A stretch of DNA of 61,953 bases, counting the filler. It is 10 parts of 10 records of this genome, joined end to end, with 100 filler letters (N's around TTAATTAATTAA, not from the genome) between each part and the next. Parts side by side here need not be neighbours in the genome. Positions count along the whole stretch, not along the records: positions 38,989 to 43,089 come from SRR11831585_90; 9 more parts are not named here. One strand, given 5' to 3'. The notes under the pieces are model-generated. The model was not told the DNA's origin and did no database searches. It was given only the letters and a program-made list of their open reading frames with translations. Made by a program: the position numbers and the translations under genes. This document shows, piece by piece, positions 10,935 to 58,610 of this stretch. Every line of letters begins with the position of its first letter. The first letter of the stretch is position 1.

Positions 10935-11034
10935 NNNNNNNNNNNNNNNNNNNNNNNNNNNNNNNNNNNNNNNNNNNNTTAATTAATTAANNNNNNNNNN
11001 NNNNNNNNNNNNNNNNNNNNNNNNNNNNNNNNNN
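10935..11034. other. Artificial contig spacer. The same spacer occurs at 21593-21692, 35553-35652, 38889-38988, 43090-43189, 46060-46159, 48265-48364, 54840-54939 and 58511-58610
   Basis: Identical 100-nt N runs with central TTAATTAATTAA, which puts stops in all six frames. Confidence 0.98.
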
Positions 11035-36936: not shown

Positions 36937-38336
36937 ACACTCGCCAGCTATTGAGCGTCGGTATCGATATCGGCACCACCACCACCCAGGTGATTTTCTC
37001 CCGGCTGGAGCTGGTTAACCGTGCGGCGGTGTCGCAGGTGCCGCGCTACGAATTCATTAAACGCGAAATTAGCTGGCAAAGTCCGGTGTTCTTTACCCCT
37101 GTCGATAAACAGGGCGGTTTAAAAGAAGCGGAACTGAAAACCTTAATACTCGAGCAATATCATGCTGCGGGTATTGAGCCGGAAAGCGTTGATTCTGGTG
37201 CCATCATCATCACCGGTGAAAGCGCGAAAACCCGCAATGCTCGCCCGGCGGTGATGGCGCTCTCTCAGTCGCTGGGCGATTTTGTCGTTGCCAGCGCCGG
37301 GCCGCACCTCGAATCCGTGATCGCCGGTCACGGAGCCGGGGCACAAACCCTTTCTGAACAACGGCTGTGTCGGGTACTGAATATCGACATCGGCGGTGGC
37401 ACCGCGAACTACGCCCTGTTCGATGCCGGAAAAATCAGCGGCACTGCCTGCCTCAACGTCGGTGGTCGCCTGCTGGAAACCGACAGCCACGGGCGCGTGG
37501 TTTACGCTCATAAACCGGGGCAGATGATTGTGGATGAGTGCTTCGGTGCAGGCACCGACGCCCGTTCGCTGACCGGCGCGCAGCTGGTGCAGGTGACCCG
37601 GCGGATGGCAGAACTGATTGTCGAAGTGATTGACGGAACGCTCTCACCGCTCGCGCAGGCATTGATGCAAACCGGTTTGCTGCCCGCAGGTGTTACGCCC
37701 GAAATCATTACGCTTTCTGGCGGCGTGGGCGAATGTTATCGCCACCAGCCCGCCGACCCGTTCTGTTTTGCCGATATTGGCCCGCTGCTGGCAACTGCGC
37801 TGCATGACCATCCGCGCCTGCGTGAGATGAACGTACAGTTTCCGGCGCAAACCGTGCGCGCCACGGTGATTGGCGCGGGCGCGCATACCCTTTCGCTCTC
37901 TGGCAGCACAATCTGGCTTGAGGGCGTACAACTGCCGCTGCGCAATTTGCCGGTGGCGATCCCGATTGATGAAACGGATCTGGTGGGGGCCTGGCAACAG
38001 GCGCTGATTCAGCTGGATCTTGATCCCAAAACTGACGCGTACGTGCTGGCGCTTCCCGCCTCGCTGCCTGTGCGTTACGCCGCGGTACTGACGGTCATCA
38101 ACGCGTTGGTCGATTTCGTCGCGCGTTTTCCGAATCCGCATCCCCTGCTGGTGGTGGCCGGGCAGGACTTTGGTAAAGCTCTGGGCATGTTGTTGCGCCC
38201 ACAGCTACAACAACTCCCGTTGGCAGTCATTGACGAAGTGATTGTCCGCGCGGGGGACTATATCGACATTGGTACGCCTCTTTTTGGCGGATCGGTTGTG
38301 CCGGTGACGGTGAAATCACTCGCATTTCCTTCCTGA
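36933..38336 (+). CDS. eutA: Ethanolamine ammonia-lyase reactivase EutA
   Basis: GIDIGTTTT and DIGGGT actin-like ATPase motifs. Confidence 0.95.
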   Translation: MNTRQLLSVGIDIGTTTTQVIFSRLELVNRAAVSQVPRYEFIKREISWQSPVFFTPVDKQGGLKEAELKTLILEQYHAAGIEPESVDSGAIIITGESAKTRNARPAVMALSQSLGDFVVASAGPHLESVIAGHGAGAQTLSEQRLCRVLNIDIGGGTANYALFDAGKISGTACLNVGGRLLETDSHGRVVYAHKPGQMIVDECFGAGTDARSLTGAQLVQVTRRMAELIVEVIDGTLSPLAQALMQTGLLPAGVTPEIITLSGGVGECYRHQPADPFCFADIGPLLATALHDHPRLREMNVQFPAQTVRATVIGAGAHTLSLSGSTIWLEGVQLPLRNLPVAIPIDETDLVGAWQQALIQLDLDPKTDAYVLALPASLPVRYAAVLTVINALVDFVARFPNPHPLLVVAGQDFGKALGMLLRPQLQQLPLAVIDEVIVRAGDYIDIGTPLFGGSVVPVTVKSLAFPS

Positions 38337-38347
38337 GGGAACGACTT

Positions 38348-38885
38348 ATGAAACTAAAGACCACATTGTTCGGCAATGTATATCAGTTTAAGGATGTAAA
38401 AGAGGTGCTGGCTAAAGCCAACGAACTGCGTTCGGGGGATGTGCTGGCGGGCGTCGCAGCGGCAAGCTCACAGGAGCGCGTGGCGGCAAAGCAGGTGTTG
38501 TCGGAAATGACCGTAGCGGACATCCGCAATAATCCGGTGATTGCCTATGAAGATGACTGCGTGACGCGGCTGATTCAGGACGATGTTAACGAAACGGCCT
38601 ACAACCAGATTAAAAACTGGAGCATCAGCGAACTGCGTGAGTATGTGCTGAGCGATGAAACCAGCGTGGACGACATTGCCTTTACCCGCAAAGGGCTGAC
38701 CTCGGAAGTGGTCGCGGCGGTAGCGAAGATTTGCTCCAACGCGGACCTGATCTACGGCGCGAAGAAAATGCCGGTAATCAAAAAGGCCAATACCACCATC
38801 GGTATTCCGGGCACCTTTAGCGCCCGTTTGCAGCCAAATGACACCCGTGACGACGTGCAAAGTATCGCCGCGCAAATCTACGAAA
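38348..38885 (+). CDS. eutB: Ethanolamine ammonia-lyase large subunit, 5' part (truncated)
   Basis: MKLKTTLFG...RLQPNDTRDD, runs into the spacer. Confidence 0.95.
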
Positions 38886-39089
38886 GTCNNNNNNNNNNNN
38901 NNNNNNNNNNNNNNNNNNNNNNNNNNNNNNNNTTAATTAATTAANNNNNNNNNNNNNNNNNNNNNNNNNNNNNNNNNNNNNNNNNNNNGATGGTTTGGAA
39001 GCCCGTCCTGGTAGACGACCTAGCCTACCGAAGATGTGAGTTATTCAAAAATGTCGCTTTCCCGCGTTCCGTAGACAAACGTACCTAAA

Positions 39090-41279
39090 TCAATGTCGTC
39101 TAATACCGAGCGCGCGCCTGATAAACATCTGATCAACGTACCCAATCGATCTACTCCAAATGTCCTGAGTATCCCGAAGATACTGGCTCAACTCATCCAC
39201 ATCAGCCTCGTCGGAAAATTCCAGCAAGTCTACCAGTCGGTGTAACGTCTGAATGGGAATGCCAATCTCTTCTAAGGCATTGACACCTGGTGGTAGATGG
39301 AAACTTTCGAACGCCAATTTGACATGTGTGTAATCGACTTTGCTGCGTATACCACGCTTTACAGCGTGGTGTTTAACTACATCCTCCATCAAGCTGAGCA
39401 CCTTAGGTAGGGTATAGCCGAAGGTATTGGTTATGAGCTTCAAATCATTGTTGAGGGCAATGGAAAGAGTACGTTTCTCCCCTTCAGAAATCCACTGTCG
39501 TGCATAATCGATCTGATTTTTCAGATATTCCGAATAACTTTCAGCACTTAAATAGCCGGCAAGTTTTGCGATCATGACATCCGTAGGCTTAACAGGGACC
39601 CCATTGCGACTGAACGTATGGGGAACCAGTCTGGCAATGATCTTTGCAAAGGTCTTGAGGAAGTTTGTCGCGGGAGTCCAGTGAAACACTAACGAGGAAA
39701 ATTCGTTATCGTCCATCATCTCGAACATGCTTTGCAGCATTTCGAACTGCTCGACACGGAAGTACGAATGCTTCTTCACAAGGTCGATGGAAACACGGTC
39801 GTTTATGAAAACCTCATCAAAGCGATCCTGTGAAAACTCGGACAAGTGGTCTGGTTGAACGCTGGCTAACAGGTTGATTGGGGTATCAATGCCCTGAATA
39901 CCGAGCGGAATATCCACCTCTTGATTGAGATTGTCTTCCGGGATTTCCTCCAGGCAAAAGATTTTGCCGACGAAGTGAACGCCCATGCGCCCGGCGCGAC
40001 CTTTGATGTTCCCATGGGTGAATTTGTCAATGCTGCGAGTTCCATCGCGGTTGTCGTAGATCACAACGTTCTTAGCGATAGTGTTGACTCCTTCAATGAT
40101 CGTGGAGGTGCAGAGCAAAAAGCGCAGTTTTCCAGCATTGAATTGGTCGGCAGTGTATTGCTGCAGTGCCCTCGGTAGCGCGCCAAAATGCAAGCCAATA
40201 CCGTTTCTAAGGGCGACTGTGTAATCCCAGTCGGCATCGAACTCTTCGCTGACCCAGTCGACATGGGGATTCTCAGTCGGAGTGCCATGCCCAAGCCTGA
40301 TCAGCTCGCGCGCCACCAGGCCCGCAACAGTTGGTGACTTGCAATAAATGATCGTTGCGTCGACACATGCGTGCGCGATTTCCCCCAGCGCTTTGAGCTT
40401 GGCTTTGTCGTCATTCGCTTTGATGCCGAACGTCTTAACATCTAGCGCGACTGTATTGAAGTCGGTAGAAACGAAAGTATGCGGATATCCAAGTTTTTCG
40501 AGACCGCGAATGCTGTTAACGAACGGTCCCGTCAGGTAAAACTGCCTGGAGACCTTAAGCAGTTTGCTTAACGCAATGTTGAGCTCGATGACTCGTTCGT
40601 CTTGATGATCAATGTCCCCGCTTTTCAGTTGTCGGAACGCCAACTTGTAAAACTCGTCAATGACGAAGAGGTCAATGTCGACGATGTCGTCACGCTCGTT
40701 CACTCGCTCCTGAGTTAACACATAAACAGCCTGATCGGAATGGCACACTTGGGAACTGTGGTGGATGATCTGATATCGGTCACCGAATCGCTCTTGCAGT
40801 CGGCGACGGGTTTCGTCGGCAAGAGCCACGGTTGGAACAACCAGAACAAGCCGTTTCAAAGTTCCCATGCCGAGCAATGAATCGACGATTGCACTTTTGC
40901 CCATGCTTGTAGGTGCACTCAGCACCACGTTTTGACCAGACTTGAGCAGATCGAATATGTGGAACTGCATTGAGTGGAAAACATAACCATCCGAGAATGG
41001 CGTCCGGTATAGCTCAAGCACCCTCAGGTCATCCGGTGTCAGGCTGGTGAACTCCTTTTTGAGATACGGGAACAAACCTGATTTTCTCACCATATTTTTC
41101 AAAATTGTGGTGTGCTCGGAAAACCGCTCGCGCGAATCGAGAGCTCGCACGATCAAGTCCCGTCCCAAGTCATACGAAACAGGGTTAGACAACAGCTTGT
41201 TAACCGCAAACAGATAATTGAACGATGAGAAGTCCTCACCCTGCAGGCTATGTTTCGCCTGTTCATAGATCTCTGTCAT
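39090..41279 (-). CDS. abpB: Ski2-like SF2 helicase, Hachiman HamB-type anti-phage protein (AbpB/YfjK)
   Basis: 729 aa. Motif I APTSMGKS, Ia VPTVALA, Ib TQER, II DEFY, V TSTIIEGVN, VI NIKGRAGR. Confidence 0.9.
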   Translation of the reverse strand: MTEIYEQAKHSLQGEDFSSFNYLFAVNKLLSNPVSYDLGRDLIVRALDSRERFSEHTTILKNMVRKSGLFPYLKKEFTSLTPDDLRVLELYRTPFSDGYVFHSMQFHIFDLLKSGQNVVLSAPTSMGKSAIVDSLLGMGTLKRLVLVVPTVALADETRRRLQERFGDRYQIIHHSSQVCHSDQAVYVLTQERVNERDDIVDIDLFVIDEFYKLAFRQLKSGDIDHQDERVIELNIALSKLLKVSRQFYLTGPFVNSIRGLEKLGYPHTFVSTDFNTVALDVKTFGIKANDDKAKLKALGEIAHACVDATIIYCKSPTVAGLVARELIRLGHGTPTENPHVDWVSEEFDADWDYTVALRNGIGLHFGALPRALQQYTADQFNAGKLRFLLCTSTIIEGVNTIAKNVVIYDNRDGTRSIDKFTHGNIKGRAGRMGVHFVGKIFCLEEIPEDNLNQEVDIPLGIQGIDTPINLLASVQPDHLSEFSQDRFDEVFINDRVSIDLVKKHSYFRVEQFEMLQSMFEMMDDNEFSSLVFHWTPATNFLKTFAKIIARLVPHTFSRNGVPVKPTDVMIAKLAGYLSAESYSEYLKNQIDYARQWISEGEKRTLSIALNNDLKLITNTFGYTLPKVLSLMEDVVKHHAVKRGIRSKVDYTHVKLAFESFHLPPGVNALEEIGIPIQTLHRLVDLLEFSDEADVDELSQYLRDTQDIWSRSIGYVDQMFIRRALGIRRH

Positions 41280-42892
41280 ACGACCTCTCTCACCTTCTCA
41301 TCAACTAATTGGGTTAACCGCTCAAGACTCGGGGCTGGATAAATGAATACGTGGATGCAAAGATTCGCAAACGGCGAATCCTCGATGAGGTCAGCCGCGA
41401 ATTTTTCGAACAGCACCGCTGTTTCTTTCTCCAGGTCATCCTCGAACCCCGGCGTTTCAGGCTCGGTTAGTAGATTAGAGTCGTAGCCCACGAACAGAAC
41501 AAACGTGAAACGATCGAGGTGAGCATCGAAAGGTTGGCTGCCATCAAGAATTTCGTCAATGTCGTGGCGAAGCAGGTAGTTATCGTCTTTAATGTCGAGG
41601 ATTTTTTTGCGCGCGGTATCGATGCAATCCGAAATGTCCTCGTACAACTGATCCCGTATCTCCGGCAATCTGACGGCAATGTTAATATCAGTCACCAACT
41701 CGCTGAAGCCAATCCAAAGCTGATCACCTTCTGGATCGCGGCGAACGATATGCACGTTTTCAAGAATTTTTTCGGCCCCTGCTTTTTCCACGTATAGCAT
41801 GCAAGGAATAGGCTGGCTTTCGTGGTGCTGCCGGATCGTTGCGTGCAACAGCACTCGACCCAAAAATTCGCTGACGTCATGGAGCGATTTGAAGACGGAA
41901 TTCTTTAGTCGTTCTCGCTTTTCAATGAATGTCAGTTTATGAATATCAGACATTTCTTTTGGTCGGAGAAAAACCTCATCCAACCATTGACAGACGTTAT
42001 CCGCGATGTGCTTGTAGCGGTATTTCTTAAGTGAGTACTGCTGATGTAGAACCTGGCCTTTACGCTTAGCGCAGACCGAAGCCATAGGCGCTCTAAATGG
42101 CGTAAGGATGTGGGGTAAGTCCCGTTTGACGTAGATTTTGCGGCCTGACCGAGATTGGTCATCTTCGACACGCTGCTTGAACCACTCAAGTAGGTCTGGT
42201 CGTAAGTAGGACTTGTCATCAGCACTGTGAATGCGTCGAGAATGCTCGCCCTTGCGCGTCACAGTATCAAGGATGCGGCACCAAATGTCTTCGGCGACGG
42301 TTTCGGAACTGAGAATGACCCCATGTAGATCTTGGGAGGCCAGCCGTATGTTCTTGATCCCTAGAAGTTCCAGTTCGCGCAGGGATGAAAACACTTCCCA
42401 TGTAGCCGCATCGATCCAATCTGAAACGCTTATACCTGAGTCTGTTAAAAAATTGTCTGTGCGTTTGTTGAGGTCATCGATGAGTTCCTGTCGACCTGGC
42501 TTATCTAGTCGGGCGTTTGGGCTGATCGTCAAGTACTCAAGGGTTTTGTTGACCTTTTCCTCTGTGACGATGGAGTACCTACGTCCAAGGGACAGGTCAG
42601 ACTCACACTGCATTGATTTGTGCAAAATTGAACTGCAGGGGATCGTCTTTTTATCAGCACCTTTTGAATTCTGAACGATGTCCGAAATGTTCCAACGTGT
42701 TTTGCCGGTGCTTTTTACCTGAACGAAGTCGATGTATCCATCAGATACAATGTCGATATCGTCTGTGACCTCGCAGCGCACACTGCGGATAGTCTTGTCA
42801 CGAAGCATTCGGGTGACATGGTAAGCGGCTACGCAGTCCTGAAATAAGAAACCGTGCTTGGCGGCTACTCCGCCTGAATCGTTCGACTCCAT
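41276..42892 (-). CDS. abpA: Cap4-like (DUF4297) PD-(D/E)xK nuclease fused to a HamA/DUF1837-like domain (AbpA/YfjL)
   Basis: 538 aa. N-terminal GG..A..GF.FQD / EVTDD / QVK nuclease signature. Stop overlaps the helicase start (ATGA). Confidence 0.85.
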   Translation of the reverse strand: MESNDSGGVAAKHGFLFQDCVAAYHVTRMLRDKTIRSVRCEVTDDIDIVSDGYIDFVQVKSTGKTRWNISDIVQNSKGADKKTIPCSSILHKSMQCESDLSLGRRYSIVTEEKVNKTLEYLTISPNARLDKPGRQELIDDLNKRTDNFLTDSGISVSDWIDAATWEVFSSLRELELLGIKNIRLASQDLHGVILSSETVAEDIWCRILDTVTRKGEHSRRIHSADDKSYLRPDLLEWFKQRVEDDQSRSGRKIYVKRDLPHILTPFRAPMASVCAKRKGQVLHQQYSLKKYRYKHIADNVCQWLDEVFLRPKEMSDIHKLTFIEKRERLKNSVFKSLHDVSEFLGRVLLHATIRQHHESQPIPCMLYVEKAGAEKILENVHIVRRDPEGDQLWIGFSELVTDINIAVRLPEIRDQLYEDISDCIDTARKKILDIKDDNYLLRHDIDEILDGSQPFDAHLDRFTFVLFVGYDSNLLTEPETPGFEDDLEKETAVLFEKFAADLIEDSPFANLCIHVFIYPAPSLERLTQLVDEKVREVV

Positions 42893-43189
42893 TTAGACAT
42901 CCGTGACAATTTTGCGAAAATTAAGGAGATGTTATGACACAGTCCAATCGGATCACTGCATCATCACCAGTGATCTAAATACTTCACAGCCATTCTCGGT
43001 CGCAGGTATCAAGCTTTTCAGGATTCCACAAATATTGTAACCCTGACGTCTAATTTGGTTATATAACATACTGCCCCAACTAACGTAAGNNNNNNNNNNN
43101 NNNNNNNNNNNNNNNNNNNNNNNNNNNNNNNNNTTAATTAATTAANNNNNNNNNNNNNNNNNNNNNNNNNNNNNNNNNNNNNNNNNNNN

Positions 43190-45402
43190 GGTCCGTGCCA
43201 AGCTCGCGCCCCACACGTTGTTCTGCACGGCGGTCTTGAGGAACTGCACGGCATACTTGCGCACATTGGCTGCTTTGTCACTCACGCGCGCACATGCCCG
43301 CTCCACCATGGCAAGAAGGACCTTCCACGGCACCGCTTTCTCACTGCATGGGGTTTGTGTTGTTTCGTGAGCCGATCAAATTATAACAGCCGGAGAGCGA
43401 TGATACGAGATACGGTTGGAATGCACTTGGAGCACCGCGGGGAATTGGTGAAATGGAAGTAGACAGCACAGACGAGACTAACGACTGCCACCAGCAAAAG
43501 CCACGACGCAGACACACAACAATACCACCACAACACCAAAGCAGTAACCCGGAAACATGGAGTGTGCCACAACATACGCGACCAGCTGAATCCATGTCTG
43601 CAGCGTCTTGCTGCGTGTGTACGCGTTCACATCCTCATGGCGCTCCAGCAGAACTTTAATCAGGGAATCGCGCGTCTCCGTCGATTTCATTGCGATAGAG
43701 GCATCCTCGGCCGGCTGTTGTGTGCTCTCCGCAACCTTGAGGATCAGCTGCCCAATCATGGAGATGATGGCGTTTCGGATCACGTAACTCTGCAGCAAAT
43801 ACAACCAGCACGATTTTTCCGTGAGCCCATTGACGGCCGCATTACCACAGACAGGAAACAAACTCTGAGAATGATGCAACTCAATGAATGTGTGACGGCA
43901 ATATTTACACAGCCACACGAGAAAAGCAACGTGCGAATCGAACGGCTATATTCGCCTGTCAACACTCATAGTGTGGTGAAGAAACGGGGTTTGAGAAATG
44001 AGACAACAAAAACAACAACAAACTACGGCACGCCTGACGCACCTCTTCCTCCAGGTGGCTCAGCAGCAGACTGATGTTGCTAAGGGTAAACTTGGGCGCC
44101 ACCACACTCAGCCGCACCAAGAACGCAGCCAGGTTCTTTCCTGCACTAGCGTCCTTTCCCAGATCATCCGCGTTGAGGCTGCCCATCTGTCGCAGCAGAG
44201 CCACCGCACACAGTGGGTGCACACCGGTCAGCTGTTCCACCATATCGGCACAGCATTCGGCGAAATGTTCGTGTTTGAGCACCGCGTCAAGGATGGCGGA
44301 GAGAAAGAGAGTGTAGGTGGGGTCGGGATCGCGTTGTGCGCAGTGAACCAGTGTCTTGAAGACCTAAGGGCCGTTGCGGGGGTGATAAGAGAAAAGGCGG
44401 ATACGTGGATAGATATGCAGAGTCAAGGATGCTTTTTGCAGGACGAAGAACAGCAGAGTATGATGAGAACACAGGAGATACATATGATATAAGCAGAAAA
44501 AGACGAACAAGTATATAGGCACGAAACACCATACACAGGGCTTGACACAGGATGAGGACACAAGAGACACATATGATATAAGCAGAAACAGACGAACAAG
44601 TACATACGCACGCAAAAGCAGGCGGAACGTACGGATGCAAGCGTTGCCTTCTGCTTCACGATCTTGTTGTTGCACAGCAGAGCGACACCTGCAGAGGCGA
44701 GCAGCTGCAGATACTGTGCAAGCGCAGTCTTTGCCCACGCAGATGTGTCGCAGTTGGTAAATGCCGTCATTGCACTCACTAACTTGCTGTGCTCCGAGTC
44801 CCAGTCAAAAGTCTCGCTGGCACTGTGTGAGCTGGTCGCCTTCTTTTTCCCTCGCCCCTGCAGAAATGTTTGAATGAGCATTTTCATACAAGTGTTTGCG
44901 ACAACCTGACAGGTGTTGTGAGACAACGAGACACCACAACAGAGGCGACTGAACAAGCGAATGCGGGCTGTACCTTCGCGGGGACGGCGGTGACCGATGC
45001 CGAGATAACACCAGCCGCATCACTTGCTTCCACCACGCGCACAACACGTGTTAAGAGATACAGATAGCAATGCACAGCTCGTTGATCGCCGTGATCCCCC
45101 GATGGATTCGTCATGCAAAGCGCTTTCAGACCCGAAGCGACCAAATCAACCAATTGACTTTTGAATGTGACCTCCAACTCTTGCCACCGGCCACTGTATA
45201 CATGTGCCAGCCCAATTACATTGGATTCGCAAATGTACCTCGGATTCTCAAGGATACGATCCACAAATTCTACCACATATTAATATACACTCCGAAACAA
45301 ATCGGGCGTACCATCTAGGTTGCGTGCAATGGCAGCCGCATTGAATTCGGCATCAGTAAACTGATCCGCGAAGTTGGCCAGCTCTTCCTCTAGCGACGGC
45401 AT
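43190..45402 (-). CDS. Eukaryotic condensin subunit CAP-D2/Cnd1 (NCAPD2-like), 5' part, spliced
   Basis: Exons 45402-45312, 45269-44974, 44857-44633, 44363-44043, 43789-43578 and 43343-43190 are joined by GT-AG introns and stay in frame. Peptides FDW, LLSHLEEESYVIRNA, DVNAYTRSKTLQ and DKAANVRKYAVQFL are typical of CAP-D2 HEAT repeats. Confidence 0.8.
44462..44612. repeat. Diverged ~62-bp direct repeat inside an intron
   Basis: GATGAG(A/G)ACACA(G/A)GAGA(T/C)ACATATGATATAAGCAGAAA(A/C)AGACGAACAAGTA... at 44462 and 44551. Confidence 0.85.
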
Positions 45403-45654
45403 CCTTTGCGGTTACCTCGCAGACCAAGCAGATAGAATAGAAACTCGGATCCGCGCTGAGACCTGCTTGGGACGAAGCCTGAAAACACAAGGTTCAAAAT
45501 GCGCGCCAATGCAATACGCCGCTTTTTGAGGGCGAGCATCCGAACTTCCGAACTTCATAGGGTTGCAGTCTTCTGGACAGCGGTAGCATCTGCTGCTCTC
45601 TCGCGACCGTGTTACAGCTAACGAGCGTCCCAAGCAGGTGAGCATGTGCAACCA

Positions 45655-46058
45655 ATGGCTATGAAGGCGGTAGTATTTTGTGTTGTTTTGATAATTGCGA
45701 CATTGGCGCTGGTAAATGCTCGCGGATCGAAAGCATTCTCATTTGTTGAGTACTTTCAAGGGTATTGTTCACTCCCCGTCGTACGCTGTGCTAAAACCTT
45801 GATAGGGAGTGGGATGTAGATGTGACTCATTCTTCCTACGGGGGAGACAGATCCAACACAGGTATGTCATTTGTGTTCATAATTTTCTGGTCGCTAACTA
45901 ATGTGCGTACTGTTACAGATGCGCCGCTGGCTGTGCAAATTCATGTGTCTGTACATGCTGCCACAGACGTGTTCGAGGGACTTATGGGCTTCTACAACAC
46001 CTCTCTTTCTCCGTTCACGCATAACCCGGTCTTCGTGTACGTCACAGTTCCCATCTGA
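45655..46058 (+). CDS. Eukaryotic secreted protein of unknown function, 5' part, spliced
   Basis: Signal-peptide-like MAMKAVVFCVVLIIATLALVNA. GT-AG introns 45762-45805 and 45862-45918 keep the frame: ...YFQGEWDVDVTHSSYGGDRSNTDAPLAVQ... Confidence 0.55.
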
Positions 46059-46315
46059 CNNNNNNNNNNNNNNNNNNNNNNNNNNNNNNNNNNNNNNNNN
46101 NNNTTAATTAATTAANNNNNNNNNNNNNNNNNNNNNNNNNNNNNNNNNNNNNNNNNNNNATTGCTGCAAGTGTGTTTGTGTGGGTCGTTCGTGGCACCGC
46201 GGCAGCTGATTACAGTGGTTGACGAATGTGTTCTGTGAACGTTGAACAGTTTTTGTTGTCGAATGTGTGTTGTGTGTTGTTGTTGTTGTTACTGAGCGGA
46301 CTCTCTATGTGTCAG

Positions 46316-48204
46316 GTGTTTTGCCGCGGTTGCTGAACGAGATTCTGAAGACGCGCGTGATGATTAAGACCGCCATGAAAGAAGTGCCTGCGGAGGATAA
46401 GGTTTGTGTTTATTGTTTGCAGTGTCAGTGTGTGTGCCTCTCACCGCGCGTAACTGTGTGTGTATGTGTGTATGTGTGTACTGTCTGTTCCTGTCATTTT
46501 GTCCTGCGTGTTTATGCACTGATATATATATATATACATCGATGCACATCGCGCACGGTGTGTGTCGCTTTCATCCTTCCTCCTGTATATTTGACCGTTT
46601 CATTCTGCAGACCCTGCTTCGCTTGCTGGACTATCGACAAATGGCTCTTAAAATGATTGCCAACGTAACGTATGGATACACTTCGGCGTCGTTCTCAGGT
46701 CGCATGCCTTGCGTTGAGATTGCAGGTACGTTTCTGTTATATTATATATACACACGAACATGGGTGTATGTTTGTGAGGTAGCGTTCCTGTTATCACAGA
46801 ATTTTGATGGTATTTGCGCTTTTGGTACCTTTTCTGTAGATCCTTCAAGCCGGAGCTGTTCTTGCGTGTTGAATATCAGTGTGCGTGCGTGCGTGTGGTT
46901 TCTTTTAAGAATATAGTGTGCTGCGGCGAGTACCAGTTGGCTTATGTATCTCTCATTCGTTGTATGTCACTCGAGATATGTGCCCGAAATGTTGACACTG
47001 TGTATCTTTGCCGCGATTTTGCGCTGATATGTGCTGTGTGTGCGTGTGTGTCGTACAGACGCGATTGTGCAAACTGGTCGCGAAACACTGGAGCGTGCTA
47101 TCCGCGTGATAGAGTCTGAATGGCATGCAGAAGGTGACTAACTATTTTCTGGTAGATTTGAGGGTTGATCCTCTGTGTGAGTTTGTGAGGGTAGTGTTGT
47201 TCTGTTGGTTTGTTTTTCTTTGAAACTGTGTGTGTAATATTGCAGCATCTATGCGTCTATCCGTGTTGGTGAGTGAGGGTGGCACACACACAAGGTACTA
47301 CGTGTGGTGACTGTACTGTTTGTGAGTGTGTGTGTATGCGCACTCCGTGTCTGAGTGCCCTGTGTCTGGTTGTCTGTGCGTAGTGGTATATGGCGATACC
47401 GACTCCCTGTTTGTGCATCTGCCCGGCGCTTCACGCGATGAAGCTTTCCGCATTGGGAAACAGATCGCCGCGAAAATCACCTCTATGAACCCGCGCCCGG
47501 TGCGTGATTAATTATTGTTTTTGGTCAGTGCTTTCCTGTCAGGGTTCAATCACGGAGGGTACGGTGCCCGCTTGGAGGGTGTTCGTGTCGTCTTGTACTG
47601 TTCACGAGTTCCGCCATGTAATGTGCTCTGTATGCACTGTGCGTTTTTGAGTTTACAATGTGTCTACGCTGATGTACATATTTGTGACTTATGCTTTCTG
47701 TGATATATGGCGCAACACACGTTCGTTTGATTGCGTATACCTTTGCATATATGAATGATGTATGTATGTGCACGTGTGTGTATGCTGACGGACTGTGCCG
47801 TGGTTCAGGTGACGCTCAAATTCGAGAAGGTGTTTCATCCGTGCGTGCTCCTCTCCAAGGTATACGACACGTTACAACATTCACTGTCCCTTCTTTCATT
47901 TTCGAGAACTTCCGCCATTTCTCGTGCTGCATACCGCAACTGTACCTTCTGTGAACTGCGTTCGTGTATGCTGCACCCACTGGTACTCTGAGATGTGTAG
48001 CGGTTACTGACCCTGCGAACCTGCTAGAAACGTTACGTGGGTTATGCGTATGAGTCTCCCGCGCAGCAGAGCCCCAAGTTTGACGCGAAGGGTATTGAAA
48101 CAGTGCGTCGGGACACGTGTCCGGCGGTTCAGAAAATCATGGAGAAATCCTTGCATATGCTGTTCACGGATCCGGATTTGTCTGCAATCAAGTCATACCT
48201 GACG
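46316..48204 (+). CDS. REV3: Eukaryotic DNA polymerase zeta catalytic subunit (REV3-like), internal fragment, spliced
   Basis: Exons 46316-46401, 46611-46725, 47059-47133, 47384-47499, 47809-47859 and 48028-48204 give ALKMIANVTYGYTSASFSGRMPC, YGDTDS, KKRYVG and DAKGIETVRRD. Confidence 0.9.
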
Positions 48205-48386
48205 GTATGTCGTTGTGTGTCCTCTAGATGTTCTGCGTATGTGTGTGGACGCTCTGTATAATATNNNNNNNNNNNNNNNNNNNNNNNNNNNNNNNNNNNN
48301 NNNNNNNNTTAATTAATTAANNNNNNNNNNNNNNNNNNNNNNNNNNNNNNNNNNNNNNNNNNNNGGGTTTCGGCCCCGGTTCTCTT

Positions 48387-54839: not shown

Positions 54840-54939
54840 NNNNNNNNNNNNNNNNNNNNNNNNNNNNNNNNNNNNNNNNNNNNTTAATTAATTAANNNNN
54901 NNNNNNNNNNNNNNNNNNNNNNNNNNNNNNNNNNNNNNN

Positions 54940-55475
54940 GATGAAGATGATTGCACACGACTGGGATGACGGAGATTTTGGACGCATTCTGCGGAATATT
55001 GTGAGGAGCATGCCGCGCGGGGCGAGGGTGCTTGTGGTGGATAGTGTGTTGGAGAATGCGTACGGGATGTCGTACACAGAGATGGTGAAGGTGCGTGTGT
55101 GCGGTGTCGCGTGCGTGGGTGTGGTTGTTGGTGACATTGTGTTAGTTTTTTCGAGGCGCGTTGTGTACGGATGAGAGGTTTCGTGGGCTGCATGCATGCT
55201 GTATGTGTATATGGAAGTTTTCCTGTGTCCACCGCCAGTGCACACAAATTGTAACTAATAGGGTGAATTCCCGCGTTTGTCTCTGTGTGCCGCCGTCTCA
55301 CGTTATCGTGTAGGTGCTGATGGACATCAACATGATGGCGAGCTGTGCTTCGGGGGCCAAGGAACGCACCCGACCGGAGTTTGAGCGTGTGTTTGAATCG
55401 GCCGATCTGAAACTGAACGCTGTGTATCCGCTGCGTACTCTGTTGAGTCTTGTGGAGGCGGTGCGTGCGCAATAA
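54940..55475 (+). CDS. Eukaryotic SAM-dependent O-methyltransferase (Methyltransf_2 type), 3' end, spliced
   Basis: KMIAHDWDD...RVLVVDSV, intron 55091-55313 (GT-AG), then VLMDINMM...GAKERTRPEF...*. Confidence 0.8.
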
Positions 55476-56278
55476 TGTGTAAAGGGTGATACGTATTCTT
55501 TATATGAGTAAGTGACGGATATGTACCGTGAGCGCGTGTGGGTGAAAAGTATATAGTGTGCGTGGGGGTGTGTGTATGTGCTAATGTGATGCTATGTGCA
55601 CTGATGTCGGTGTGTGGGCTTCTGTGTGTCTGTGTTTGTGCATCGTGTGTATTTGTTCGTGTGAGCGCGTACTATCGTGTTGAGAGTGGTAAGTGGATGT
55701 ATATGATACCAGAACGCAGAAAGATATTATATATGAGTTACTATATATGTACTAGTGGCCGTGTTGGAATTTTTCCCTTTTAGTTAAAGTTATACGCAAC
55801 AGAATACAGTGATAGCAGCAATTCATAGCTTGATGTGTTGGAACTTTTTGGGTGAGAAGCAGCCGTACCCCAGTAGTACACATAGGTGGTTTAAGTTCGC
55901 GGGTGGGGCGGTTGTGACCTCGGCGACATAAAATACGAGAGAGCAAGCATGCGCTGCAGAGAGGAGAGAAGCGTTTACGACTAAGCACGTAGGATTGCTA
56001 GTCTACATCCGATCGCGTCAATACATGAATTTTGTACAAATCGATGTGCTACCGTCGATATCCACACACCGGAGCTGAGTTGAGCGGAAACACTGTCAAC
56101 TGCGTATGGACAATTGAGAACCGGAGCGGGCACACTATTATATTTATTGGAATGGCGGAGAATTCCTGGAAACATGACATACCAACCACTGACGTCATAA
56201 CGAATAATGCAACGTCCAGAAAAAGCATCCACGACGTAAGCGCATAGTCTAACTGCTTACGTAAATAGCAATGAAATT

Positions 56279-58367
56279 TCAGAACCACGCCTTCATGTCC
56301 ACCTCCACGTAAGTGGCACAGCTGAACCGCAGACATAAATGTAAGTGAGCACGCGTAAGCGAAACAGAACACGCAAACATCAATATCTCTGGCGGTAAGA
56401 CAAGCATCAAGAGGGTTCCACACCTCACCACCAAACACCAGAAGACAAATCAAACAAACACAACAAAAACACATTTACGGATCCCATGAAACGGGCCCAC
56501 GAGACTCAACCACCAAGCAACACAGTATGCAACTGTTTAGCCAACACATACCAGGCTGGGCGCCACGACTTTTGTGTGCCCTGCTCCCACGCCACGAACG
56601 CACGCAGCGTGGTCGGCTGCCACACGACACTGAGAATATTGCTCCCCTCCGGCGCATCCTATACACAGCGTGCGGGTATGAGGGAGGGGAGATGACTGGG
56701 ATACTCCACAGGGCGTCGTGTTGTTAGGGGGGATAACAATGGACTGTACGGTTAAGTACGAAAGACAACAGGATGGGCAGTAGGGATAACAGCACACACA
56801 TCCCAAGAGTATGAAGAACAGCCTATACCAAGATGGGACGTAGCAAAAAGAACAAGAGGCTTGCGCAACAAGCACATAAACAGAGAGCATCATAACTATC
56901 ACTAGAAACTGCAGCACGGTCTCCATCTCGCACAATACCCCAGCAAGAAACCTGTTTCACGCGCCACACACGAGCACAATTTATGCACACAACACACGCA
57001 CATACACACAAACACGCACACACACGTACAGAGCACTGGTACGGATGGTCGAGACCCTTGTCAGCCACAATGGATGTGGTGTTCATCGCCTCTAGATCGC
57101 CGATCTGAATTCCCTCGGTTTCGTAGTAGGCGAAAGAGTCGTGGATGAAGAAATACCTGCACGCCATCCATACACACATTAGGAGACCACTAAGCACTGT
57201 ACATGCGCGTGCGGGTCGGGAAGTGCGGCTACGACTGGGCTCGGACCGATCGGCACACTGTACGAATGCAAACAGAAAACTCACACCCGCACAAACACAC
57301 ATAATATACCCCGCGGACCACGTCGACCCCAAATGTTTCCCATATTTGCACACAAACACACACACACATCTCGCGGTGTGTCCCAAGGAACCGTGCGACG
57401 TACCGGCGAATAGTGCTTTCATGCGGGGCCTGGCTCCACAGGAAATGGGCGCGAATGGTGGGATCGTACCCGTGGTTTGTGCGCCACACAGCCTAGTGCA
57501 GCGCATGCGTTGAGAACAAGCAGGGAAAGAAGGACGGAACGATGAGAGAGAACATGTAACGGGAAACAGCCATAGCAAGACCAACTATAGCAATAGGAGC
57601 AACAGAGTTGAAAGGGGGCTCCGCAACCGAAGAATACGCGCTACCGCACACAGAGCCTAGAGGAGGGAAACAGAGCAAAAGAAACACAACACAACCACGC
57701 ACACACATTCAAAACAAAACATCTTCTTACTGACATGAGCACAACACCAGTTACAGTGTGGGTACCTCCTTCATCGGCTGCCCGATTGGGGTGGAGACGT
57801 GGGTCTGGGGATCAACATAGACCGCGTTCGCTTCCCTACACATACATACATTCACCAAATGCATACACAGTGCACGGCGTAAGCCACACGGATACAAGCG
57901 AGCACCAAAAAAATGCATTGATCACCCACCACGCACACCGATGAAAACATACCGCGGGTCGTTGTCGTTGAAGAAAGCCGTGTACACAGCATTGGTCTCC
58001 AGAGCCAGGGCCATACGGTCCGAAGCACTCGATACCATGTGGTTGAATCCAACCTGATCGATAGACACACGCGAAAAACATAAAACACAAGCAACAGCAA
58101 CACGGAACAGAAGATTAAAACGTTACCGCGACGGACGATAACCAAGTTGCATGCACGCTCGGAGCAGCTGAATCCAAATACACCACCGCACTCCCAGCCC
58201 CAGACACGAAGGCAAAAAACATATAGTTGATCATCCCAAGATCCCACATGAAAACATCTATAGACCGTTGCATACAGTGTTGTTGGTGGCCTGCCACAGC
58301 TGCTTGGCCTCAGCCAGGTTGGACGCCCGCTCCATCACATAACGCAGACGAAGGACCCAGGGGAACC
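56279..58367 (-). CDS. Eukaryotic Ntn-hydrolase (peptidase C45 / Dcd1 acid-ceramidase-like), 3' part, spliced
   Basis: Seven in-frame exons (58367-58276, 58053-57953, 57835-57766, 57492-57404, 57156-57030, 56658-56552, 56321-56279) read GFPWVLRLRYVMERA...GFNHMV...WRTNHGYDP...WRPACCATYVEVDMKAWF*. Family assignment is from memory. Confidence 0.65.
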
Positions 58368-58610
58368 CTACCACATATGTTGAGCGTGCGTGTGAAAGAG
58401 ACAGAGAAACACACGCGCATGCAAACACATTCTACTGCTTATCAGACACACAGCCACCCGACAACACGTCAACTGTGAAAACACACACCCACACCCACAC
58501 CCACACCCACNNNNNNNNNNNNNNNNNNNNNNNNNNNNNNNNNNNNNNNNNNNNTTAATTAATTAANNNNNNNNNNNNNNNNNNNNNNNNNNNNNNNNNN
58601 NNNNNNNNNN

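Follow-up and report, generated by a model that had tools for sequence, protein, structure and literature searches.

A stand-alone contig in the 61,953-nucleotide stretch of DNA analysed here (the window) almost certainly carries the abpA-abpB operon of the Escherichia coli K-12 lineage, a type I-B Hachiman anti-phage system. Two co-oriented open reading frames (ORFs) of 538 and 729 residues are listed on the minus strand of this contig. They occupy 3,803 of its 4,101 bases, leaving margins of 101 bases beyond abpB and 197 bases before abpA. The start of abpB overlaps the stop of abpA by four bases (ATGA), and a GAGAGG box lies five bases before the abpB ATG; we infer that the two genes are translationally coupled through this overlap. 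An earlier note, made from the letters of the window, had described just such an arrangement, with two genes in the same orientation that share an ATGA and fill their contig, and both the ORFs and the overlap were found exactly as described. The main features of the contig are as follows.

38989-43089: stand-alone contig 5 (4,101 bases) with an N spacer on each side; same sequence as E. coli K-12 CP4-57 DNA
41276-42892, minus strand: abpA (yfjL, HamA of type I-B Hachiman), 538 residues; PADLOC HamA1 PDLC00153, 2.8e-266; equals residues 28-565 of 8zue_A
42248-42877, minus strand: Cap4-type (former DUF4297) PD-(D/E)xK endonuclease domain of AbpA, residues 6-215, the active nuclease; Pfam PF14130, 1e-55
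42713-42760, minus strand: codons of catalytic D45, Q58 and K60 of AbpA
41336-42013, minus strand: HamA/DUF1837 domain of AbpA, residues 294-519, a catalytically dead scaffold binding AbpB; Pfam PF08878, 3.7e-41
41276-41279, minus strand: ATGA overlap (minus-strand letters) of the abpA stop and abpB start
39090-41279, minus strand: abpB (yfjK, HamB), Ski2-like helicase/ATPase of superfamily 2 (SF2), 729 residues; PADLOC HamB1 PDLC00180, 4.2e-220; Pfam DEAD and Helicase_C; equals 8zue_B
40893-40916, minus strand: Walker A/motif I APTSMGKS of AbpB, residues 122-129, with K128
40647-40658, minus strand: motif II DEFY of AbpB, residues 208-211, with D208 and E209

Identity with abpAB of E. coli K-12

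The whole contig (1-4101) is 100% identical to E. coli K-12 MG1655 and also to a K-12-like genome, G001. A megablast search against 5,426 complete E. coli genomes found it in 363, all with an identity of at least 99%; MG1655, C600, J53 and others match at 100% over all 4,101 bases, and the matched features are annotated as abpB and abpA. The pair lies in MG1655 within the feature 'cryptic prophage CP4-57', downstream of ssrA-intA-alpA-yfjI and between yfjJ and yfjM, with rnlAB next. The 538- and 729-residue proteins are residue-for-residue identical to chains A and B of PDB entry 8ZUE ('Anti-bacteriophage protein A/B'). The gene calls are far beyond chance, with Pfam E-values of 1e-55 to 3.7e-41 for AbpA and the PADLOC values given above for the two proteins, and no evidence contrary to the identification arose in the analysis. 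The recognition of the pair from raw sequence as abpA/abpB (yfjL/yfjK) of the K-12 CP4-57 prophage was therefore accurate. So was the expectation that it is probably not new to science. The pair is already known, and its phage range, triggers, host-factor needs and structure by cryo-electron microscopy (cryo-EM) are published for this exact sequence; the value of the contig as a discovery is accordingly small.

The window consists of ten contigs joined by nine spacers of the form N44-TTAATTAATTAA-N44, located at 10935-11034, 21593-21692, 35553-35652, 38889-38988, 43090-43189, 46060-46159, 48265-48364, 54840-54939 and 58511-58610. Because these spacers separate contigs, the other contigs are physically unlinked to the one with abpAB, and the earlier remark that the two genes are unrelated to the housekeeping genes elsewhere is true, though trivially so. 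As the unlinked contigs are of mixed origin, neighbours are uninformative about the abpAB locus, and arguments from genomic context should not extend over the N spacers. An Rfam search (E up to 1) of the abpAB contig returned no RNA families.

The ends of the contig were also considered as the borders of a strain-variable cassette. This was rejected because the flanks are as narrowly distributed as abpAB itself: the adjoining 1-kb segments of K-12 are found with at least 99% identity in 363 and 362 of the 5,426 genomes.

Architecture of AbpA and AbpB

AbpA begins with MESNDSGGVAAKHGFLFQD and combines an N-terminal Cap4-type nuclease domain with a C-terminal DUF1837 domain. The PD-(D/E)xK signature that had been read at its N-terminus is present, with the quoted motif GGVAAKHGFLFQD found there, D45 located within EVTDD, and Q58 and K60 within FVQVK, and this region gives the PF14130 match. 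In published work, the Q58A and K60A mutants lost defence (PMC10732053), and D45A or K60A abolished cleavage (PMC11914072). The DUF1837 domain scores 141.9 bits against a cut-off of 25 with PF08878, and it is reported to dock on the N-terminal repeats of HamB/AbpB (PMC11914072).

AbpB is an SF2 helicase in which the DEFY box quoted in the earlier note could be read together with APTSMGKS. Its matches to the Pfam families DEAD (32.6 bits) and Helicase_C (26.4 bits) are each over the respective cut-off, and NCBIfam gave weak Hel308-type matches alone, far under their cut-offs. Its solved relatives in a PDB search are Pol-theta helicase domains, SLH1, the HamB of 8VX9, Mtr4, Hel308 and Ski2, which bears out the label 'Ski2-like'. 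The K128A, D208A and E209A mutants of AbpB lost defence (PMC10732053).

PADLOC and Pfam thus returned matches to HamA, HamB and Cap4 profiles, and the assignment to Hachiman, for which a DUF1837 HamA and an SF2 HamB had been put forward, follows from the HamA1 and HamB1 matches. The contig has a HamA with DUF1837 and a HamB SF2 helicase with intact ATPase motifs, encoded by adjacent, co-oriented genes. The type I-B assignment rests on the N-terminal Cap4 domain with D45/Q58/K60, its fusion to an inactive DUF1837 domain, and identity with K-12 AbpA/AbpB.

Loss of the DUF1837 active site

An HMMER search with AbpA residues 285-538 returned 86 proteins at E up to 0.001. Of the 76 newly listed proteins, 53 entered the local alignment, and 23 were excluded for lengths outside 270-345 and 500-580 residues. 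Ten further rows, which repeat fragments P0006-P0029 from an earlier search, were also left out. Twelve stand-alone proteins (281-311 residues) show invariant D132, E150 and K152 within the motifs KGfD.vH and LWlGEaKFY. AbpA reads ILENVH and LWIGFSELV at the same positions, with E378, F396 and E398 in the D, E and K columns. Among the fused relatives (500-580 residues), the glutamate column has E in 0 of 34, the lysine column K in 5 and the aspartate column D in 9, and all 34 retain each of the Cap4 residues D45, Q58 and K60, which are also kept in 12 of 12 related loci. All of D, E and K are present in 12 of the 19 short proteins (270-345 residues); the seven without them may be truncated or split AbpA-type genes.

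The alignment independently reproduces the published dead HamA site of AbpA; AbpAB had been proposed as a Hachiman variant of this kind by Tuck et al. 2024 (PMC12278908). The PDB was searched with the C-terminal part of AbpA as a single sequence (E up to 10), which matched 8zue_A alone and did not reach the HamA of 8VX9. A profile of the short DUF1837 proteins with the AbpA C-terminal domain (A1) found 8zue_A and 9wh1_A alone in the PDB, and a profile of the 12 stand-alone forms (A2) 8zue_A alone. Since no search reached the 8VX9 HamA, the D..ExK comparison rests on the stand-alone relatives and not on the ECOR31 chain. A homologue search restricted to shorter proteins gave 30 matches, nearly all of them AbpA-type fragments, and no clear type I-A HamA.

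AbpA carries a DUF1837 domain according to Pfam, and AbpAB might accordingly be supposed to work exactly as type I-A systems, with DUF1837 as the nuclease and its release by a helicase that senses a 3' single-stranded DNA (ssDNA) end, as in the model proposed for HamAB of E. coli ECOR31 (PMC12278908). We find this barely credible for AbpAB. The D..ExK residues, invariant in 12 of 12 stand-alone forms, are replaced in AbpA, and the glutamate is absent from every fused relative. Mutants of the Cap4 site lose both defence and cleavage (PMC10732053, PMC11914072). Purified AbpA alone leaves DNA uncut, and HamB of type I-B, which has no OB fold, responds to double-stranded DNA (dsDNA) in vitro (PMC11914072). 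AbpAB was therefore not filed as type I-A, because E378, F396 and E398 stand at the D..ExK columns of its DUF1837 domain. The mechanism suggested in the earlier note, in which the helicase releases the nuclease and thereby causes DNA degradation and abortive infection, holds for its outcome, since both degradation and abortive infection are published. Its release step is not supported for type I-B, because AbpA alone is inactive and the complex cleaves DNA. The correction to be made is thus cleavage by the complex in place of a released nuclease.

Comparison with related defence systems

The closest known system is AbpA/AbpB (YfjL/YfjK) of K-12 CP4-57 itself (type I-B Hachiman, PDB 8ZUE), from which the sequence in the window does not differ at all. 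The type I-A HamAB systems (E. coli ECOR31, PDB 8VX9; E. coli DEC14B) likewise consist of a DUF1837 protein and a Ski2-like SF2 helicase that form a 1:1 complex, and AbpB matches 8vx9_B HamB at 1e-07. They are also activated by DNA damage, degrade phage and host DNA, and act by abortive infection (PMC12278908, PMC11914072). The two types differ in both components. Type I-A HamA has about 280-300 residues and consists of DUF1837 alone with an active D..ExK site, whereas AbpA has lost that site and gained an N-terminal Cap4 domain. The HamB of type I-B is without WH and OB domains and is dsDNA-responsive in vitro, in contrast to that of type I-A (PMC11914072).

The Cap4 effector of CBASS (PDB 6WAN) has an endonuclease fold and a metal-binding triad in common with AbpA (PF14130), and Cap4 D50/E67/K69 correspond to AbpA D45/Q58/K60 (PMC10732053). 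AbpAB differs from it by having no SAVED sensor or CD-NTase gene and by activation through a helicase partner rather than a cyclic oligonucleotide. Membership of CBASS was rejected, with no Pfam matches to SAVED or cyclic-nucleotide sensor domains in either protein and a contig too small for a third gene. Lamassu (LmuA/LmuB) was rejected as well. The best LmuA match of 5.8e-14 compares with 2.8e-266 for HamA1, the weak LmuA matches in PADLOC are mostly confined to the N-terminal Cap4/DUF4297 part of AbpA, and the partner is a helicase, not an SMC-like LmuB.

A second solved complex of the fused HamA type, represented by PDB entries 9WH1, 9WHK and 9WHU, is a distant relative of AbpAB. The 528-residue chain in 9WH1 ('Anti-bacteriophage protein A/HamA C-terminal domain-containing protein') was found with the DUF1837 profile at 9.3e-06, and the 853-residue partner in the complex matches AbpB at 7e-20.

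Published activity and proposed mechanism

AbpAB was reportedly first described by Yasui et al. in 2014. T4, phiX174 and the lambdoid phage Sp5 are blocked by the system and the RNA phage Qbeta is not (Sasaki et al. 2023, PMC10732053), and protection of 10- to 10,000-fold was obtained with a panel of 50 phages in the study that resolved the complex by cryo-EM (8ZUE) and introduced the name type I-B Hachiman (Cui et al. 2025, PMC11914072). Defence requires both abpA and abpB (PMC10732053, PMC11914072). Activators include T4 Gp32 capable of ssDNA binding, mitomycin C, norfloxacin and bleomycin; loss of recB or recC activates the system partly, and activation is independent of RecA and LexA (PMC10732053). 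The system needs DNA polymerase I (PolA), and when RNase HI is lost (rnhA deletion), AbpAB becomes toxic with no phage present (Takita et al. 2026, PMC13689553). In vitro, AbpB alone shows no unwinding. The ATPase activity of the AbpA-AbpB complex with a 52-bp dsDNA is about ten times that of AbpB alone; short duplexes are unwound by the complex, and linear, plasmid, single-stranded, phage and host DNA are broken down by it into pieces of less than 100 bp (PMC11914072). Published work further shows that both the complex and ATP hydrolysis are necessary for cleavage.

In the mechanism that these data support, AbpA and AbpB form a 1:1 complex, with the C-terminal DUF1837/HamA domain of AbpA serving as a scaffold on the N-terminal helical repeats of AbpB and the N-terminal Cap4-type endonuclease (D45, Q58, K60) as the effector. 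When replication or repair intermediates arise, ATP hydrolysis by AbpB would drive unwinding and enable sequence-unspecific DNA degradation by Cap4; ssDNA-bound Gp32 and the damage that mitomycin C, norfloxacin or bleomycin causes are the known triggers. The degradation affects phage and host DNA alike, and growth arrest or death of the infected cell follows (abortive infection). The signal read by AbpB in vivo and the unlocking of Cap4 inside the complex are the steps that we infer.

Abortive infection was demonstrated with T4 and phiX174 (PMC10732053). That AbpAB would instead provide direct immunity, by selective degradation of phage DNA in an unharmed host, is very improbable. Protected cultures do grow normally at low multiplicity, as direct immunity would have it, but they collapse early at high multiplicity (PMC10732053, PMC11914072). 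In the absence of phage, mitomycin C kills over 99% of the cells that express AbpAB (PMC10732053), and the genomic DNA of MG1655 is degraded by the complex in vitro (PMC11914072).

Three further points bear on this mechanism and on the genomic setting. The contig stops before yfjJ or yfjM, and the CP4-57 location is therefore not readable from the window. A preprint (10.1101/2025.07.10.664194), which also describes a 1:1 complex and cleavage dependent on AbpB, places the Cap4 domain of AbpA at the C-terminus and the HamA-like domain at the N-terminus; this order is the reverse of the Pfam layout found here, and the purified protein in the preprint is named PaAbpAB. Finally, the trigger of the ATPase in vitro is short dsDNA (PMC11914072), whereas the triggers in vivo point to ssDNA-protein complexes or damage (PMC10732053).

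Relatives in other genera

A scan of one genome per species identified 17 loci with AbpA of 65-100% identity (best segment), in Escherichia, Pectobacterium, Tenebrionibacter, Mixta, Providencia, Pantoea, Pseudescherichia, Pseudomonas, Stutzerimonas, Rheinheimera, Iodobacter and Aeromonas. Intact abpA of 538-539 residues and the ATGA overlap are both found in 11 of the 12 loci with a full match and enough DNA. In the remaining one, from an insect-symbiont Pantoea (L008:4001-5614), codon 67 of the abpA homologue is a premature stop. Thirteen loci have a full-length abpB after abpA. AbpA reaches 98% identity in Pectobacterium and Tenebrionibacter, which suggests recent horizontal transfer.

Flanks were inspected for seven of the 17 loci. 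In two of them, Pectobacterium L004 and Providencia L010, a pair of intact GmrSD-family genes lies immediately upstream of abpA, and one has BrxL upstream and a PD-(D/E)xK gene downstream. In K-12, the 87-residue YfjM is 90% identical to residues 555-641 of the second, 641-residue GmrSD protein of Pectobacterium, supporting a shared ancestry of the yfjM stub with the second GmrSD gene of the cassette. The features concerned are:

L001:13263-13526: K-12 yfjM, just outside the contig of the window; C-terminal stub of a 641-residue GmrSD-family protein
L004:1756-3681: intact gene for the 641-residue GmrSD-family protein of Pectobacterium; a second GmrSD-like gene is also present, directly upstream of abpA

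It is an unlikely though conceivable extension of this observation that abpAB reached K-12 as the distal half of a four-gene mobile cassette (GmrSD-like 1, GmrSD-like 2, abpA, abpB), still whole in Pectobacterium and Providencia, where the type IV restriction pair GmrSD and AbpAB might act in series. Functional coupling of the two is pure speculation; if true, GmrSD cleavage of modified phage DNA would create ends or damage that activate AbpAB.

Region upstream of abpA

About 60 bases directly upstream of abpA are conserved in distant loci. A block TGGAC ... TA.ATT ... TTGTCACGGATGTC..A.ATG is shared with the Pseudomonas and Stutzerimonas loci, in which AbpA is 69-88% identical and the flanks are otherwise unrelated. 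From this conservation, the block may represent the native promoter and leader of abpA. A consensus promoter scan did not call the minus-strand block at 42893-42952, and over the contig it yielded one promoter-like and one terminator-like site versus 4.6 and 4.1 expected from shuffles, which is no enrichment. The features of this region are:

42893-42952, minus strand: conserved upstream block of abpA, probable promoter and leader (alignment A3)
42894-42921, plus strand: sole promoter-like site on the contig (consensus scan)
42934-42978, plus strand: 14-codon ORF following the promoter-like site, with an AAGGAG Shine-Dalgarno box five bases upstream

The 14-codon ORF was considered as a divergent small gene and rejected. 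Its Shine-Dalgarno box reads AAGAAG in three enterobacterial loci, its start codon is not retained in the Pseudomonas, Stutzerimonas and Rheinheimera loci, and it is probably a chance occurrence.

Provenance of the contig

The assembly may be mixed or contaminated, and the contig a piece of stray DNA from a laboratory strain of the K-12 lineage, which would be compatible with the function of abpAB; we judge the case for and against this to be evenly balanced. Were it stray, the contig would reveal nothing of the biology of the assembly's intended organism. The composition of the window speaks for such an origin: contigs 1, 4, 5 and 10 match the K-12-like G001 at 100%, as does most of contig 3, contig 8 is 96% and contig 2 78-86% identical, and contigs 6, 7 and 9 have no match to it. 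The restriction of the locus to 363 of the 5,426 complete E. coli genomes, all with at least 99% identity, points the same way, and among the 75 carriers listed, the labels K-12, MG1655, W3110, BW25113, DH5a, C600, J53 and MC4100 predominate. Furthermore, a Nocardioides assembly contains a low-coverage contig of 273 bases (L019) that matches part of abpA at 100% and is likely to be stray E. coli DNA. On the other side, some of the listed carriers came from mouse gut, dog, chicken, pig and human, and a K-12-like strain could truly be in the sample. The eut contig of the window also lacks the CPZ-55 prophage segment present in G001, although C600 lacks it as well.

Other contigs of the window

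The contig with eutH-eutA-eutB (35653-38888) is 100% K-12-like, without the segment of about 6.8 kb that lies between eutA and eutB in G001. The two matching pieces overlap by eight bases at the junction near 38329-38336, and the uninterrupted eutA-eutB junction is also found in E. coli C600 and many non-K-12 strains. CPZ-55 occupies the eutA-eutB position in MG1655.

Contigs 6, 7 and 9 (43190-46059, 46160-48264 and 54940-58510) look eukaryote-like rather than bacterial. They contain few long ORFs under translation table 11, and short minus-strand ORFs in different frames. A weak match to Cnd1_N (condensin) was found at 44423-45019, and a match to DNA_pol_B (family-B DNA polymerase) at 46401-46916.

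Contig 3 matches G001 at 100% as far as about 33572, and its last 1.6 kb (33920-35552) runs on into the syntenic adjoining region with 73% identity; this end could be a chimeric join of two organisms or a strongly divergent allele.

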